DNA of 64,000 nucleotides from Tolypothrix carrinoi HA7290-LM1 (GTDB lineage: Bacteria > Cyanobacteriota > Cyanobacteriia > Cyanobacteriales > Nostocaceae): NCBI GenBank assembly GCA_019358935.1, contig JAHHIK010000006.1, positions 32,001 through 96,000 of the forward strand, given 5' to 3'. This document shows positions 3,976-10,622 of this stretch, piece after piece. Both the position numbers and the translations under genes were made by a program. Under the pieces are notes generated by a model. That model had not been told where the DNA came from. It saw only the letters and a program-made list of their open reading frames with translations, and did not search any database. Each line of letters starts with the position of its first letter. Within the stretch, counting starts at the first letter, position 1.

Positions 3976-5382
3976 ATGAGCGATTTTCTTCCAACTGGGA
4001 TTCAGTTAACGTACTTGGTTGCTGCATCTTTATTTATTCTCGGTTTGAAAAAGCTGGGTTCACCTGCGACAGCACGAAATGGTAATGTGATTGCAGCGGT
4101 GGGTATGTTGCTGGCGATTGTGGCAACGCTGCTGGATCAGAAGGTGTTGAATTACGAGATGATTTTGTTAGGTTTGGCGATCGGCTCGGTAATTGGTGCG
4201 ATCGTTGCTTACAAAGTCCAAATGACGGAAATGCCCCAAATGGTGGGTTTACTCAACGGTTTGGGTGGTGCAGCTTCTGCGCTGGTTGCTGTTGCGGAAT
4301 TTTGGCGTTTGCTCGATCATGGTGAAGCAATACCCCTGGATGTCAACATCTCGATGCTGTTAGATGTGTTGATTGGTGGTGTGACTTTCACCGGTAGTTT
4401 TCTTGCCTTTGCCAAATTGCAAGGTTTAATTAGCGGTTCTCCAATTACGTTTCCGTTGCAGCAACCGTTTAACCTTTTGCTTCTCGGTGCTTATATAGCA
4501 GGCAGTGCCTATTTAATCGTATCCCCCCACAGCCTACCTGTATTTCTAGGGGTGGTTGCCGTTTCTCTGGTGCTGGGTGTGATGTTTGTCATCCCCATCG
4601 GTGGCGGTGATATGCCTGTGGTAATTTCGCTGTTAAACTCGTTATCGGGGATCGCTGCTGCTGCTGCTGGTTTCGTGGTGATGAACAATATGTTAATCAT
4701 CGCTGGTGCTTTGGTGGGAGCATCTGGTTTAATCCTTACCGAGATTATGTGTAAGGCAATGAACCGCTCTTTATTTAGTGTGCTATTTAGTGCTTTTGGT
4801 TCAGCGTCTGCATCTGGTGGTGGTGCTGGTGGTGGTAGTGCGATCGACCAAACTGTTCGCAGCATCGATCCCGAAGAAGGCGCGATGATGTTGGGTTATG
4901 CTCGTTCTGTGGTAATTGTACCCGGTTATGGGATGGCGGTAGCACAGGCACAGCATAGCGTGCGCGAGTTGGCAGATCAACTAGAGCGCATGGGTGTTGA
5001 TGTTAAGTATGCGATTCATCCGGTTGCTGGTAGAATGCCGGGACATATGAATGTGTTGTTGGCTGAAGCGAATGTGCCTTATACTCAGCTTCACGACATG
5101 GAGGATATTAATCCTCAGTTTGAGCAAGCGGATGTGGCTTTGGTAATTGGCGCAAATGATGTAGTAAATCCGGCGGCGCGGAGTGATGCAAATAGCCCAA
5201 TTTATGGTATGCCGATTCTAGAAGTGGATAAGGCAAAGCAGACGATTGTAATTAAGCGCGGGATGAGTACGGGTTTTGCCGGTGTAGATAATGAGTTGTT
5301 CTACAAGGATAAGACTACGATGCTCTTTGGTAGCGCGAAGGATATGGTAGCGAAGTTGGTTTCTGAGGTGAAGCAACTGTAA
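3976..5382 (+). CDS. pntB: NAD(P) transhydrogenase subunit beta
   Basis: MTEMPQMV, IGGGDMPVVIS, HPVAGRMPGHMNVLLAEA, GANDVVNPAA; true start is ATG 3976, the upstream extension being repeat-derived. Confidence 0.97.
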   Translation: MSDFLPTGIQLTYLVAASLFILGLKKLGSPATARNGNVIAAVGMLLAIVATLLDQKVLNYEMILLGLAIGSVIGAIVAYKVQMTEMPQMVGLLNGLGGAASALVAVAEFWRLLDHGEAIPLDVNISMLLDVLIGGVTFTGSFLAFAKLQGLISGSPITFPLQQPFNLLLLGAYIAGSAYLIVSPHSLPVFLGVVAVSLVLGVMFVIPIGGGDMPVVISLLNSLSGIAAAAAGFVVMNNMLIIAGALVGASGLILTEIMCKAMNRSLFSVLFSAFGSASASGGGAGGGSAIDQTVRSIDPEEGAMMLGYARSVVIVPGYGMAVAQAQHSVRELADQLERMGVDVKYAIHPVAGRMPGHMNVLLAEANVPYTQLHDMEDINPQFEQADVALVIGANDVVNPAARSDANSPIYGMPILEVDKAKQTIVIKRGMSTGFAGVDNELFYKDKTTMLFGSAKDMVAKLVSEVKQL

Positions 5383-5549
5383 ACGAACCGCAGAGAAGCA
5401 GCGGAAAGTCTGAGCGGAGGTTTCCTCCGATCAGAGCTTTCCAAGAGAGAGAGCGCAGAGTAAAGAGAGTTTGCCTTGGGGGTGTTATGCTCCTGAGGCA
5501 AGCTTTTTTGTATATTTTACCAAGGTTTTTATTGCTCTTATCTATATTG

Positions 5550-6686
5550 TTATTCAGTTGTAAAATGCACGATATTTCTACTGTAGGACAAGTTATTAGC
5601 CAAAAGAGTTGTAATAGGTAAATGAGTTGGTTCAAAAATACTGATAGAGTAAGCTTTAGTAAGCCAATAAATCTCTTCTGTTAGGCTTGAAATTTTCTTA
5701 TATCCATAGACTTTTTTGATTTTGAGTGGATTAGGTACAGTTCCTGTAGTTCGCAAAGATTGATCATTTGTAATTAAATATGATATGTCATTTGCGAAGA
5801 TATAATACCCCATAAAACCATCTAAATATATAGTTTCATTATTGTAATTTGAGTAAAAACCAATTCGGGGTACTGCACTTTTGATAACTTCAACTAAATT
5901 GTATTTTGAAATTTTAACTTCATCCATTACTTTATGAAAGTATTCTAATTCCTTCTGAGTTATTAGACCATCTCTATGTATAGTAATACCATTAATATGT
6001 CTAGGTAAGTGTTTTACTATCCATTTAAATGCTCTAACTAACTCCTCATAAGAAATGACTTCATTAAATTGTAAGTTTTTCCTAGTGTAAGGTTTTTGTA
6101 GAAGGCAACCAAAGTTATCAATTACCGTTATAGTTAAATTACTCAATTTATCTGTATGATTGTGTCCTAAATCAATGCCTATAAAAATATGATCGGGATC
6201 TTGAGGATCAACATCTTTAATTTTCCAAGGAATAGCTTTATTCTTTAAACCTAATTTTAATAATGAATTAGCAATAACATTCTCATTCAAGCTATTTACT
6301 ATAACAAATGCCAAGCTATTTTTTTTAAGAGTTTCTGCCAGATGTTTATTAATTAAATCTATTTTTTCTAGCTGAATTTTGTCATTCAGTTTAACTTCCT
6401 TAGTATCAATCAAATGTAGTATGTAACTATATTGTGTATTTTCCAGTTGAGATTCTAGAGAATCTTGACTAAAATTATTATAATCAAAAACTATAACATC
6501 TGCATCATAAATGGGTGCTACAAAATTTTTATATAAAAATTTTAATCTATCATTTATATTTTTTACTATTTCTGATAATGGTTCTATTGCAAGCTGGCGG
6601 CTAGATACTACAAGTTTTAGCTCTAATTTTTCAGGCATTTTGAATACACCTGACTTATTTAAACCTTTTGGTGCTGTGTAATGCAA
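5550..6686 (-). CDS. Argonaute L2-MID-PIWI portion
   Basis: Tetrad codons D 6171-6173, E 6060-6062, D 5970-5972, N 5595-5597; possible restart at ATG 6638 with AGGTG 8 nt upstream. Confidence 0.85.
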   Translation of the reverse strand: MHYTAPKGLNKSGVFKMPEKLELKLVVSSRQLAIEPLSEIVKNINDRLKFLYKNFVAPIYDADVIVFDYNNFSQDSLESQLENTQYSYILHLIDTKEVKLNDKIQLEKIDLINKHLAETLKKNSLAFVIVNSLNENVIANSLLKLGLKNKAIPWKIKDVDPQDPDHIFIGIDLGHNHTDKLSNLTITVIDNFGCLLQKPYTRKNLQFNEVISYEELVRAFKWIVKHLPRHINGITIHRDGLITQKELEYFHKVMDEVKISKYNLVEVIKSAVPRIGFYSNYNNETIYLDGFMGYYIFANDISYLITNDQSLRTTGTVPNPLKIKKVYGYKKISSLTEEIYWLTKAYSISIFEPTHLPITTLLANNLSYSRNIVHFTTE

Positions 6687-6788
6687 ATCTCCATCAGCAA
6701 ATAGATACTTTCTTGTTATATGAATAATTTTATAGCGGTAATTTATCTTATTGATATCTTCAAAAAAAATAATATTAGATTGATTATC

Positions 6789-6977
6789 CGCCTTCGGCGG
6801 AAGGCAGAAGGCAGAGGGCAGAGGGCAGAAGGTATAAATTATGTCTTTGATTCAGCCTTCTGGCTGGAGCCAACTGGGTATAAAACCCCACCGTCTACAC
6901 GGTGTCTTCAATCGGTTGGGGTTTGAATCCCCATCCGATTGCTCCTTCTGCCTTCTGCCTCCTGCCCTCTGCCTTTC
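6789..6977. mobile_element. MITE-like palindromic repeat (about 186-189 bp) inserted in the Argonaute gene
   Basis: GC-rich block in an AT-rich gene; arms of AGGCAGA/GGGCAGA heptamers (6801-6832) and TCTGCCT/TCTGCCC heptamers (6944-6975); internal hairpins; CCGCC-TTC-GGCGG hairpin at the left edge. Confidence 0.85.
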
Positions 6978-7931
6978 TTCAATTGAGCTTTTTTCTAAAT
7001 CATTTATTAAGGTCATTGTATCTTGTAGATTAGTTTGCTCAAACCAAAATTTTTCTTTTGAAAATCTAAGATTCTCACACCTCTGACTAAAAGCTTCAGT
7101 TGAATCAAATGTATCAAATACATATTCAGGATCTTTTATATCCGAGACATTTTGAACTTTTCTGGATATTGGACGACCTGTTTTGATATTTACTAATCTA
7201 TGATTATTGTAATTTATAGGTTCTTTTAATCCTAATTTATTTACTGAATTGACTGTTATTGAAAAATTTGTACAACTCAAATTTATCCATATTGTGTCAT
7301 AATCCAGAAATTCAACAGAGTATTCAACTCCTTTCTTTACAATAAATCTATTGTGAACATCTGTAATTATTTTTGTGTTTAAAATTATGCTTTGACTGTT
7401 CTTAAATTCTACATTTATCTGATTGGAGAAGTTGTTTCTAAATCTATTGGACACTTTCTCAATAATCATTTGCTGGCTTATTTCAGCTTGCTTGACACCA
7501 ATAATTTTATATTTCACTGGTATTGCAGTTATAAAAGGCTTAAAGTTTGTGCTAAAAATATCATTAGTTGATTCAAGTTTATCTAAATCTATAATAGATG
7601 TTACTTCTTTATTTTCAAGTTTAAATTTTTTTAAAAATAATGTCACTAATTCTTGATTATGAATTACTCGGTATTTTTGGATAAACAATTTATATTTTGT
7701 ATGGGAAATTTTTTCAGCAATATCATGAATCAGAAAAAATATTAAGGAAACCTGATCTTGAGATATATTATTTTTACATATTAGATACTTGCATTCATAG
7801 ATTGAAAGGTTTGAATTTATCTGATTACTTAAATAAAGAGTATAATAGTCAAATTTATAAATTTTTATTAGATCTACAGATAAATTAGGCACATACACTG
7901 CTGCTGCTTGTACTTTACTGAATAAGAACAT
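6852..7931 (-). CDS. Argonaute N-L1-(reduced PAZ) portion with about 41 repeat-encoded C-terminal residues
   Basis: Same frame as the PIWI ORF; L1-like segment FIVKKGVEYSVEFLDYDTIWINLS; tail RQRAGGRRQKEQ... comes from the insert. Confidence 0.7.
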   Translation of the reverse strand: MFLFSKVQAAAVYVPNLSVDLIKIYKFDYYTLYLSNQINSNLSIYECKYLICKNNISQDQVSLIFFLIHDIAEKISHTKYKLFIQKYRVIHNQELVTLFLKKFKLENKEVTSIIDLDKLESTNDIFSTNFKPFITAIPVKYKIIGVKQAEISQQMIIEKVSNRFRNNFSNQINVEFKNSQSIILNTKIITDVHNRFIVKKGVEYSVEFLDYDTIWINLSCTNFSITVNSVNKLGLKEPINYNNHRLVNIKTGRPISRKVQNVSDIKDPEYVFDTFDSTEAFSQRCENLRFSKEKFWFEQTNLQDTMTLINDLEKSSIEERQRAGGRRQKEQSDGDSNPNRLKTPCRRWGFIPSWLQPEG

Positions 7932-8101: not shown

Positions 8102-8394
8102 ATATTTTATCTGACAGACTGATACTTGATTTACAGCCAATATGTACAGTTATCCTGCTTGTCTACTAGCATTTTGTACTATTCCAAAAGACATAGATTG
8201 AAGAGATCATCACTACCCGTAAAAAAAGCGATCATTACTCACCCGTTAATATGCGATCGCCTCTTCTCTTCTTCCTCTGTGTTCTCTGCGGCTCTGCGGT
8301 TAGTTAAAAAAGGCATCGCCTGACTGCAAAATCTGTACTATGCGATCGCCCTCTTCCTCCTTTGCGCCTCTGCGCCTCTGCGTGAGATAAAAAA

Positions 8395-8423
8395 GCGTAG
8401 GCAAAGCCCGCCGCAGGTATTGC
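8395..8423. repeat. 21-nt small dispersed repeat inserted in a HIP1-like site
   Basis: GCG[TAGGCAAAGCCCGCCGCAGGT]ATTGC. Confidence 0.65.
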
Positions 8424-8435
8424 TAGGTTAATTTT

Positions 8436-8885
8436 CTAAATTTCTTGCCATTCTCTAGCATCAATAAAAATAGATAGATGTTTTTTATTGCTTGTGGCAA
8501 TAATAACCTCATGCCCATAATTAGCGACTAAAATAGATTGAGATGCCAAAATTACATCACCATCTAAAGCTTTATTATCTGCTGTAGATTTACCTTGATT
8601 TCTGACTTCAGCCCATAACTCTGCGGCTTTCAACATCACTTCTGTTGTAATAGGAAGATAGATAATTTCTGACTTGAGTTGATTAAGTTTTCTAATTCCT
8701 GATAATTTATTTGCCCTTAACAATTCCCGTCTAATTTCATAATCTATAATTTCTGGTAAAATTACTTCATATCCTCTCTCAAAGAGCGTATAAAACCATT
8801 CTTGACATTGCACAGCTAGAGGCGTTGCTTTTGGATTAGTAATTAATCCCACAGGTGTAGAATCTAAGATAATAACCTTACTCAT
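8436..8885 (-). CDS. PIN-domain (VapC-like) toxin/ribonuclease
   Basis: IILDS..., LPEIIDYEIRREL, ALDGDVILA, ATSNKKHL PIN acidic motifs. Confidence 0.88.
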   Translation of the reverse strand: MSKVIILDSTPVGLITNPKATPLAVQCQEWFYTLFERGYEVILPEIIDYEIRRELLRANKLSGIRKLNQLKSEIIYLPITTEVMLKAAELWAEVRNQGKSTADNKALDGDVILASQSILVANYGHEVIIATSNKKHLSIFIDAREWQEI

Positions 8886-8891
8886 CCGATT

Positions 8892-9215
8892 TTAAATAGA
8901 AATGCCTTTCATAGATTCAATAATTTCTAAAGTTGTTTGTTGTTCTTGTTGTTCATCTAACTCATTCCAGGACTCGAATAATTTTTTAATGTTTTTTTTC
9001 CTTTCTTGTTGTTTAACTGGATCGCTATGATTAATTTCATTGATAGCATTTTCCCAGTGATTTAATGATGTCTTCCTCGTCACACTTTGACGAAATAGAC
9101 GTACAAATTGCAGTAATTCTGGTAGATATTCTTCGGGAGTTTGTTCAATTTCTAATAATAAATCAGCGCGGGGTGTAGTTGATGATTGTGCTGTGATAGG
9201 TTGATTATTGTTCAT
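8892..9215 (-). CDS. Putative antitoxin upstream of the PIN toxin
   Basis: Small ORF ending 6 nt before the PIN gene; LLEIEQTPEEYLPELLQFVRLFR motif typical of cyanobacterial TA partners. Confidence 0.7.
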   Translation of the reverse strand: MNNNQPITAQSSTTPRADLLLEIEQTPEEYLPELLQFVRLFRQSVTRKTSLNHWENAINEINHSDPVKQQERKKNIKKLFESWNELDEQQEQQTTLEIIESMKGISI

Positions 9216-9555
9216 AAGTACCTTCAAAGTACATAGTTTAATAACACGAGTAGATATTAATTGGTTTTAGGATTGGTAGTTATATTATATTTTAGCTTGA
9301 ATGGCTATTTTAGTTTCCTAATAAAGTGCCGACGCTTGCATGGTATCGAATAGATCAAGAATCGTTTCCTGATCGAGGTAAATATTATCAATTAAGCGAT
9401 CGCCTGAAAAATCTCCACTATGCGATCGCGTAAAGCCTTCGGCATGGCTACGCTTACCGCGCAGCGTGTCCGCAGGACTCAGTGACTCGCTTCTTTTGTA
9501 TAGCCTAATCTAACTTTATCATCAAGGCGATCGCTTGCTTTTTGTTGAAAAGCGT

Positions 9556-10524
9556 TCACGAAGTGATTAGAAATTCCTGAAAATCTGCCAGCGAATTGAC
9601 GGTAACGGCTCTTTCTAAAAGTTGTTTTAATAACGACAAATCCTCAATATTATTTATCATTTCTGTTAATTCTGTGGGGACTTCTCCGAAGCGCGATCGC
9701 AAAACAATAATTACCGATTCACGCGCAGTTTGTCTAGCTCCCTTCTCCATTCCTCTTAATTCCATATTGCTAAGTAATGGCATTGTTCTTTCCTCTTCGT
9801 AACGATTTAATCTTTGCTCAAAGCTTTGTGCTAACTCTCGCGGTAATGTCATCATTCTGTCAATTACCTGAAAGAGTTTGATAATCTCTCCGCGTTGATA
9901 ACCTTTCTCATACAATCCGCGAACAATATTCCATTTCCAACGTTCTCTTTCCTGGGGTTTACCTGTAGTTGCTTTGGTTTTCAAATGTGCCATTACTATG
10001 ATGGCAAAAGGATTATCGCTTTGTTGTAAACTTTCCCATGCGGGTTCGTAATCTAATAATTTGATGGTGGGAAATTTCAGATTAACTTCACAACCAGCGA
10101 ATGCATAACCATAGGATGAAGGACGCCAGTTTAAACGTTCATCGCCCAAAATGGCTAAACTAATTACAGGTCGTTGGTAAAGGTCAAACGCCCGATAATT
10201 ATAAATATACATCCGTTTGCTAAAGTCAGATTCTTCTTGACTTTGCACTTCAGTATGAATCAATACCCATACTTCTTGATTGTCGCGCAGCCACACTTGA
10301 AATAATTTATCGGCATAGCGCGAACCGATGTCAGATGATGCGGTGATTTGTTGTAATTCTTTATCAAGTGACTGTGGCGGTTTGCTCCAGTCTATTAAAT
10401 CATGAACTTGGGGGAAAAAGAAGCCACAGAATGGCTGAAAATAATCGCCGTAGACGCGTAGCGGCTTGTCGTCAGACATCGCTTCTTTCCAAGGTTCATC
10501 ATAATTGGCGTTTGGTTCGTTCAT
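9556..10524 (-). CDS. Rpn/YhgA-like (PD-(D/E)XK, DUF4351-type) putative transposase/nuclease
   Basis: YDEPWKEA, RYADKL, LIHTEVQSQ, RMYIYNYR, NPFAIIVMAHL; contains a 27-nt in-frame repeat insertion. Confidence 0.8.
   Translation of the reverse strand: MNEPNANYDEPWKEAMSDDKPLRVYGDYFQPFCGFFFPQVHDLIDWSKPPQSLDKELQQITASSDIGSRYADKLFQVWLRDNQEVWVLIHTEVQSQEESDFSKRMYIYNYRAFDLYQRPVISLAILGDERLNWRPSSYGYAFAGCEVNLKFPTIKLLDYEPAWESLQQSDNPFAIIVMAHLKTKATTGKPQERERWKWNIVRGLYEKGYQRGEIIKLFQVIDRMMTLPRELAQSFEQRLNRYEEERTMPLLSNMELRGMEKGARQTARESVIIVLRSRFGEVPTELTEMINNIEDLSLLKQLLERAVTVNSLADFQEFLITS
10451..10477. repeat. 27-nt small dispersed repeat inserted in frame at a HIP1-like site
   Basis: CCG[TAGACGCGTAGCGGCTTGTCGTCAGAC]ATCGC; 26/27 identical to the copy at 31238-31264. 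Confidence 0.9.
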
Positions 10525-10622
10525 GCTCGTTTTGTCAATGCGTTTTTCCCCCAAAGCCACAACAAAAGTTGAGGGACACGAAATTATCGTGTCCCTCAAA
10601 AGATATATTTAACGCTAATAAA

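Follow-up and report, generated by a model that had tools for sequence, protein, structure and literature searches.

How should one read an Argonaute gene that is open along its whole length except for one short, GC-rich, palindromic insert with a single in-frame stop codon? The question is raised by a 64,000-nucleotide stretch of the genome of Tolypothrix carrinoi HA7290-LM1 (the window; G000:C6:32001-96000, where G000 is the source genome), in which a long prokaryotic Argonaute (pAgo) gene is divided into two open reading frames (ORFs) by a 195-bp element. An original prediction, made from the letters of the window, had offered three options, i.e., a very recent knockout, a reversible off-switch that acts through precise hairpin excision or readthrough of the stop, and an Argonaute made of two chains. 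Our analysis argues with considerable confidence for the first of these: a recent insertion, resembling those of the gene-less IS200/IS605 derivatives known as PATEs, appears to have knocked out a rare long pAgo of the DEDN type. Near-identical copies of the element elsewhere in the genome, an empty allele in a relative and the confinement of the sole stop to the element all speak for a very recent event, and it is likely, from the reading of the sequence, that the insertion inactivates the gene.

The insert, its copies and the empty allele

As had been predicted, both ORFs lie in one frame (5550-7931, reverse strand), and translation across the gap meets a single stop, the TGA at 6852-6854, inside the GC-rich insert (GC content is 49% in 6801-7000 and 24-30% on either side). 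Deletion of the insert by script leaves an open ORF of 728 aa in which neither a frameshift nor any other lesion is visible, again in agreement with the prediction. The in-frame character of the removal therefore stands, but the limits given for it (6789-6977, 189 or 186 bp) do not; the element extends from 6788 to 6982, boundaries that are fixed by 37 full-length copies and one empty allele, and the join formerly read as LEKSSIE to DNQS becomes LEKSS-N-NQSNII.

The element core has 42 strong matches in the genome, and of the 37 full-length copies 31 are 196 bp and six are 195 bp long. Because the other copies differ from the one in the Argonaute gene by just 1-7 substitutions and at most one gap, we take the insertion to be recent. 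All 37 follow TTAT and end in TCAA (an ending also counted over 41 right ends), between flanks that are unrelated to one another; duplications of 5 or 8 nt occur in none, and those of 2-4 nt in 1-3 of the 37, which is not beyond chance. For four of the 37 sites an empty paralogue is present inside the same genome.

A search of relatives for an empty allele, which the original prediction had proposed, succeeded in run X2, a sequencing run from another study. A contig from that run matches 6617-6787 with one difference and then joins 6787 to 6983, agreeing with window 6983-7012 at 29 of 30 letters. An empty allele exists, in a strain that is ~1-2% diverged, and the crossover falls exactly after TTAT. 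A 2.9-kb contig from run X4 likewise ceases to fit at 6787, its letters beyond 6787 not being shown. Run X1, the likely source sample, reads on into the element, and no loose end of an empty site was seen there among the matches listed, in contigs, which drop rare variants.

Nineteen of the 37 copies interrupt a frame of 150 codons or more, as compared to 878 of 1500 random TTAT sites, and 16 of these 19 are 196-bp frameshifters. Since the rate of frame breaking is near random and 31 of the 37 copies shift the frame, the Argonaute gene does not seem to have been specially treated, and the in-frame, one-stop fit can be ascribed to chance. Nor is the single stop special, because none of the six frames of the element is free of stops, and three have exactly one. 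Which subfamily inserted, and in which phase, was a matter of luck.

The long complementary arms that had been noticed originally are indeed there, each of 32 nt and 88% complementary to the other; the left one begins 13 nt into the element, the right one leaves the last 7 nt free, and the termini themselves are not complementary. The element folds at -110 kcal/mol as RNA (z -9.8 versus shuffles) and at -57 as DNA (z -9.6 versus shuffles). Within the conserved core, AAAA (6882) precedes CCCC and a hairpin, and GAAT (6925) precedes CCCC; these putative guides, which were read by the position-by-position pairing rule, stand at distances of 95 nt (left cut) and 58 nt (right cut), respectively. 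An internal TTAT, 55 nt into the element, yields a 141-bp form that occurs alone on contig C2 and in tandem on C52. Rfam assigned the element to no family at the gathering score (six weak matches, all far below it); the core hairpins 6873-6886 and 6918-6932 are presumably similar to tRNA T-loop motifs, again with no Rfam match at the gathering score. Scanning of 6600-7100 for promoters and terminators found one site of each kind, where shuffles gave means of 1.2 and 0.3.

The element is not confined to this strain. Its core pattern occurs 44 times in the source genome and turned up in 7 of 200 further genomes from this family (0 for the reversed control). Of 16 loci examined in other genomes, eight show the core; all eight of these end in TCAA after a heptamer arm, and five of the six whose left flank is intact begin behind TTAT, the ends having been read by eye from single copies. 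The arms at these loci belong to different heptamer types. We did not find a description of the element in the literature searched, although a prior one under another name is possible (some papers on cyanobacterial elements were outside reach), and TTCAA had no match in the Anabaena 90 supplement.

Table 1. Positions of the Argonaute gene, the element and related features in the window
Feature	Position	Strand	Basis
Long pAgo gene, interrupted once; 728 codons without the insert	5550-7931	-	frame, PADLOC, profile, model
5' part of gene: residues 1-316, extra N-terminal region and compact N lobe	6983-7931	-	ORF, homologue model
3' part of gene: rest of L2, MID, PIWI	5550-6787	-	alignment
Tetrad codons D, E, D, N	6171-6173, 6060-6062, 5970-5972, 5595-5597	-	24/24 intact homologues
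Candidate internal start ATG 6638 (Met363 of homologue P0002, start of MID), with AGGTG 6647-6651	6636-6651	-	
Candidate internal start TTG (Leu347 of P0002); no Shine-Dalgarno-like match in the 20 nt upstream	6684-6686	-	
Target TTAT: host-gene sequence, kept in the empty allele, not duplicated	6784-6787	+	37/37 copies
Non-coding mobile element, 195 bp (65 codons)	6788-6982	+	37 full copies, empty allele in run X2
Left arm of heptamer repeats (GGCAGAA/GGCAGAG)	6801-6832	+	arm search
Internal TTAT, alternative left end	6839-6842	+	141-bp short form
In-frame TGA inside the element	6852-6854	-	frame translation
Conserved core with putative guides AAAA and GAAT	6882-6932	+	guide role inferred
Right heptamer-repeat arm, complementary to left	6944-6975	+	arm pairing, fold
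TCAA at the right end, where IS608-type elements are cleaved on the right	6979-6982	+	copies; PMC3201880, PMC5934647

The Argonaute gene and its family

The identity of the gene rests on PADLOC, on profile searches of the PDB and on fold searches, because Pfam is nearly silent: neither half was matched, and among 24 intact members of the family Piwi was detected in only four and PAZ in none. PADLOC returned pAgo/PprPIWI matches with E down to 7e-33, the family profile matched CpAgo (E 1e-22) and CbAgo (E 2e-21), and the intact homologue P0002, in a model with pLDDT 84.5, matches Argonautes over residues 130-719 (best Z 24.0, root-mean-square deviation 5.8, 530 residues aligned). The D-E-D-N tetrad is found in 24 of 24 intact homologues, and its two Asp motifs align to TtAgo. 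By sequence and modelling the gene is a long pAgo of the DEDN type, with predicted activity; a description of this gene was not found in a literature search. The N lobe is compact in the P0002 model, and the earlier designation of the upstream half as N-L1-PAZ holds approximately, the family having ~129 extra N-terminal residues that do not align to most solved Argonautes. This extra region (window 7540-7931, reverse strand; P0002 residues 1-129) is beta-rich, confidently modelled and unaligned to nearly all solved Argonautes. An Atlas search with it gave leads only below 0.9, to Argonaute N/L1, and an origin of residues 1-128 by internal duplication found no support (probability 1.4%).

The break falls in the L2 region, after residue 312 of P0002, where the insertion follows the end of a helix and lies in a variable loop; the upstream part reaches helix 298-310 of the homologue, and its ORF then continues through 43 element-encoded codons to the TGA. 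Homologues that always consisted of two separate genes would have spoken against an insertion, but 30 of the 31 homologues of 436-1388 aa are full-length single chains of 688-776 aa (the remaining one is partial), and the insertion model stands. N-lobe, MID and PIWI are joined in one chain in the empty allele and the homologues and not in the filled allele, and an alignment of 11 homologues with the read-through protein places the insertion only in the Tolypothrix gene. A search at 199-634 aa gave nine matches, among them the piece from the genome itself and partial or short-contig fragments; they include a 406-aa piece with a longer cluster mate and a 329-aa protein on a long contig.

The family is rare and patchy. 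An order-wide scan of 400 genomes gave no close match and three distant ones, and the eight Argonaute loci located in genomes comprise three that are intact, three that are decayed, one cut by a contig end and one that is distant. The decayed loci are one with three stops, a Nostoc internal deletion and a remnant; it is evident that this Argonaute family decays often. The Nostoc locus (L040:4760-5642) occupies the same chromosomal site, has lost ~1.6 kb internally and acquired a stop, and retains a PIN-like remnant upstream. A distant cyanobacterial pAgo clade is broken in three of three genomes (L049:4665-6821 in G075, L050:1217-3360 and L051:1671-3817). The G075 gene has the normal order and one in-frame stop in L2, and its two relatives are broken at other places; its ORFs of 270 and 445 aa, 6 nt apart, keep the catalytic Asp motifs. 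To judge from its sequence, the G075 gene may offer a more promising case of an active pAgo that is naturally two-chain, or else be a nonsense pseudogene.

The surroundings in the window are presumably cyanobacterial, going by gene labels that include a neighbour of the pAgo gene that we take to be transhydrogenase-like. Upstream of the gene, in an AT-rich patch (8436-9227 and 9556-10599, reverse strand), there are a PIN-type gene (weak PF01850) and a small partner upstream of it, likely a toxin-antitoxin pair, and an ORF just upstream of the pAgo gene in the same patch that we assume to be Rpn-like. Small palindromic or heptamer repeats also flank the pAgo gene at 5380-5470, 8220-8420 and 9400-9500, the first of them highly repeated in the source run.

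Candidate mobilisers and alternative readings

Transposition of IS200/IS605 insertion sequences, as far as the accessible parts of the reports cited here by PMC number describe it, proceeds by insertion 3' of a fixed tetranucleotide, with a TCAA right end, no duplication and scarless excision (PMC3201880, PMC5934647, PMC10055086). IS608-type elements pair cleavage sites with guides, TTAC with AAAG and TCAA with GAAT (PMC3201880, PMC5934647), and flexible guide spacing and PATE-like elements are tolerated, excision by the TnpA transposase having reached 0.70% in a heterologous assay (PMC10055086). A second left end at an internal TTAT, as seen in the Tolypothrix element, fits the loose guide spacing reported there (PMC10055086). 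The source genome has seven Y1 transposase genes. Contig C133 carries a full IS605-type element with an intact, divergent tnpA and a frameshifted tnpB, whose left end is TTAT with AAAA-CCCC..GGGG and whose right end is GAAT-CCCC..GGGG with TCAA; judged from motifs only, the C133 TnpA is likely cognate to the mini-element. A further IS605-type element with the same code is unassembled and was recognized from 14 identical left and 15 identical right ends at contig ends. These ends lie on C3, C8, C48, C57 and others, and on C22, C23, C42 and others; in a relative of the left end the sequence continues into tnpB, with a small divergent ORF and no tnpA. Head-to-tail junctions like those of a circular intermediate are present on C52 and C42, and sibling mini-element families account for 10 and 7 left ends in the genome. 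Two further families with TTAT/TCAA ends, one of 237 bp (C10, C13, C37, C67, C81, C112, C124) and one of ~193 bp (C4, C15, C17, C42, C6, C70, C119, C151), share the same multi-hairpin core plan with different arms, and C42 has a head-to-tail pair.

The mechanism that these observations suggest can be outlined as follows. The 195-bp element entered right after TTAT and placed a stop codon in the middle of the gene, and the enzyme that moved it was likely an IS200/IS605 TnpA encoded at another place in the genome. When the DNA is single-stranded, pairing of the heptamer arms would form a long stem, so that TTAT and TCAA come to lie close to the core, the AAAA and GAAT of which would act as guides, and TnpA would remove the element as a circle and insert it 3' of any TTAT. 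Translation of the filled allele should yield an N-terminal piece of 359 aa that ends in foreign residues, with no more than a stray MID-PIWI product besides. Rare excision could give back the exact 728-aa gene on some chromosome copies, and such scarless reversion is likely a low-frequency by-product rather than regulation, by analogy with known elements.

Several points weigh against this account. Neither excision nor loss of function has been observed, and the four runs compared are contigs. A transposase-bearing element with these exact ends was not found in the source genome, and no longer, gene-bearing version with the left ends of the element could be paired within 3.5 kb. The guide spacing is non-canonical (the 95 and 58 nt given above, versus 14 and 31 nt in the element present in 14-15 copies), and GAAT-CCCC lacks its own GGGG downstream, folding with one that lies upstream. 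Sibling families with AAGA in place of AAAA still follow TTAT (5 and 7 copies), two sibling families end in TCAA without GAAT-CCCC, and on the former ground we rejected the notion that the guide dictates the target. On the side of the protein, a 5-nt Shine-Dalgarno match like that at ATG 6638 precedes just 577 of 18754 internal ATGs (3.1%), and the break lies ~15 residues ahead of the natural start of short and split Argonautes.

Some of these points could mean that the knockout is real but the mobiliser is something other than an IS605 TnpA, for example a RAYT-type HUH enzyme. The layout of guides and hairpins and the loss of putative guides in sibling families would suit this, and two Y1 genes that we take to be RAYT-like (C51:17950-18294 and C46:32571-32882) are flanked by repeated palindromes. 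However, IS605-type elements in this genome are cut at precisely TTAT and TCAA, and no core sequence of the mini-element recurs around the seven Y1 genes, in their flanks, nor was a gene-bearing version paired within 3.5 kb, so we consider another mobiliser improbable. A selected off-switch, in which excision and reinsertion would toggle Argonaute defence in part of the population, is very improbable. Precise excision would give back the exact gene, the remainder of which is undamaged, and the TnpA excision frequency in the heterologous assay (PMC10055086) lends this some plausibility; yet a very recent insertion already predicts an undamaged gene, 18 other long frames are broken at the chance rate, ~91,000 TTAT sites are open to reinsertion, and relatives are empty or lose the gene through other lesions. 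What survives of the switch option is the mechanistic possibility of scarless, TnpA-type excision; a hairpin switch specific to this gene and readthrough find no support. Readthrough of the TGA, which would give a 793-aa protein with a 65-residue loop, is hardly credible in spite of there being one stop only and of the insertion following a helix end in a variable loop, since stops occur in every one of the six frames of the element and the majority of copies shift the frame, so that openness is not maintained, and Rfam recognizes no family in the element at the gathering score.

An Argonaute of two chains, with the downstream half restarting at 6686 or 6638 and the DEDN tetrad intact, seems to us extremely unlikely, if somewhat less so than readthrough. 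The break is near the natural split point, ATG 6638 stands at the MID boundary with AGGTG 8 nt upstream, as the original prediction correctly noted, and such a match is uncommon; one 329-aa homologue consisting of MID-PIWI only is encoded on a 229-kb contig, and splitting of Argonautes has arisen repeatedly (PMC10954474). The first 120 codons of the downstream part, however, offer as ATG, GTG or TTG starts only residues 347 and 363, whereas short pAgos and AfAgo begin at model residues 326-329. Residues 313-346 or 313-362 (34 or 50 residues), the end of L2, would be in neither chain. The omitted segment contains K339, F342, T350, the invariant G354, L355, G359 and V360, seven columns that 22 or more of the 24 homologues conserve, of which a start at 347 costs three. 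The non-standard starts ATC, ATA, ATT and CTG close behind the TGA might keep the segment, but their use is unsupported. AGGTG overlaps codons of the invariant Gly-Val and most likely predates the insertion; no more than 8 of the 24 intact homologues have Met363, and the empty allele is nearly identical there, with at most one base different over 6617-6787. Among the homologues of 436-1388 aa and the close alleles the single chain is the rule, and the nine shorter matches have no common start, except for the protein from this genome and a fragment on a 1-kb contig.

With the two-chain or switchable Argonaute reduced to an ordinary recent insertion, and small gene-breaking elements in Nostocales already documented, the more novel part of these findings would appear to be the element, with heptamer arms that can be exchanged around a conserved core and with putative guides that lie 95 and 58 nt from the cuts. 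A hairpin repeat of cyanobacteria that is like a MITE (a miniature transposable element with inverted repeats) can now be tied to a specific candidate mobiliser, the TTAT/TCAA TnpA, and the layout suggests that TnpA may use guides far from the cuts, provided that arm pairing closes the distance. A broken gene in such a genome may be able to revert and not be dead, and attention is drawn to a rare pAgo family of the DEDN type whose N-terminal region is unexplained. A bolder proposal, which we regard as speculative and rather doubtful, is that the insert represents an undescribed, Nostocales-wide class of minimal TnpA substrates, in which the central core would supply both guides and the swappable arms would zip to deliver cut sites 60-95 nt off; scarless exit in strains with dozens of copies would then re-activate interrupted genes, including Argonaute, on a shifting minority of chromosomes.

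Comparison with known systems

The interrupted gene resembles the long active pAgos (CbAgo 6qzk, CpAgo 9jh7, KmAgo 8xhs, MpAgo 5i4a) in its fold over residues 130-719 and in its DEDX tetrad (here DEDN), and is unlike them in its 12-19% identity, compact N lobe, extra 129-residue N-terminal region and rare, patchy family. Its break is in the same L2 region as in the split AfAgo/AfAgo-N and the short pAgo/APAZ systems (PMC10954474), which, as they are described there, are conserved two-gene systems with an inactive PIWI and a MID-PIWI chain that keeps the L2 end. The Tolypothrix split, in contrast, is strain-specific, caused by a mobile element and combined with an intact tetrad and a dropped L2-end segment; there is no conserved gene pair, the available starts are 347 and 363 as compared to ~327, and inactive PIWI with an effector was not found, the neighbours checked for one being the presumed transhydrogenase-like gene and the PIN-type pair.

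Small hairpin elements that make pseudogenes are known from Anabaena sp. 90 (PMC3542288) and from Microcystis, as MaeMITEs (PMC2779907), and have been reviewed (PMC3184786). The insert shares with cyanobacterial MITEs a length of 130-240 bp, a strong hairpin and the disruption of genes in Nostocales. In the available descriptions these MITEs differ by terminal inverted repeats, direct repeats (Nezha) or the lack of a known mobiliser (the Anabaena 90 set), whereas the insert has neither terminal inverted repeats nor a target-site duplication; it is by such descriptions that it is set apart from Nezha and others (via PMC3184786), some of which may be the same family. Closer are IS608 of Helicobacter pylori and the C133 element, which are likewise cut on the left 3' of a tetranucleotide, end in TCAA, start with C and have both GAAT and AAAx followed by CCCC; they differ in having their own tnpA and tnpB and subterminal hairpins 10-19 nt from the cut sites (PMC3201880).

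The closest parallel is with the PATEs of Haloquadratum (PMC3119063), Geobacillus (ISGst, PMC10055086) and Halanaerobium (PMC7290912). Unlike PATEs as they are portrayed in these sources, the insert is not built from the two ends of a parent insertion sequence, and no parent with the same ends was found; its putative guides AAAA-CCCC and GAAT-CCCC are present but sit in the central core, between long paired arms that differ among families and genera, and they are not kept in every sibling family. Like PATEs, it is short, non-coding and present in many homogeneous copies, has a fixed target outside the element (the TTAT that is kept in the empty site), ends in TCAA, makes no duplication and would depend on TnpA in trans. 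From its sequence, therefore, the insert appears to work like a PATE, and we place it provisionally among them.

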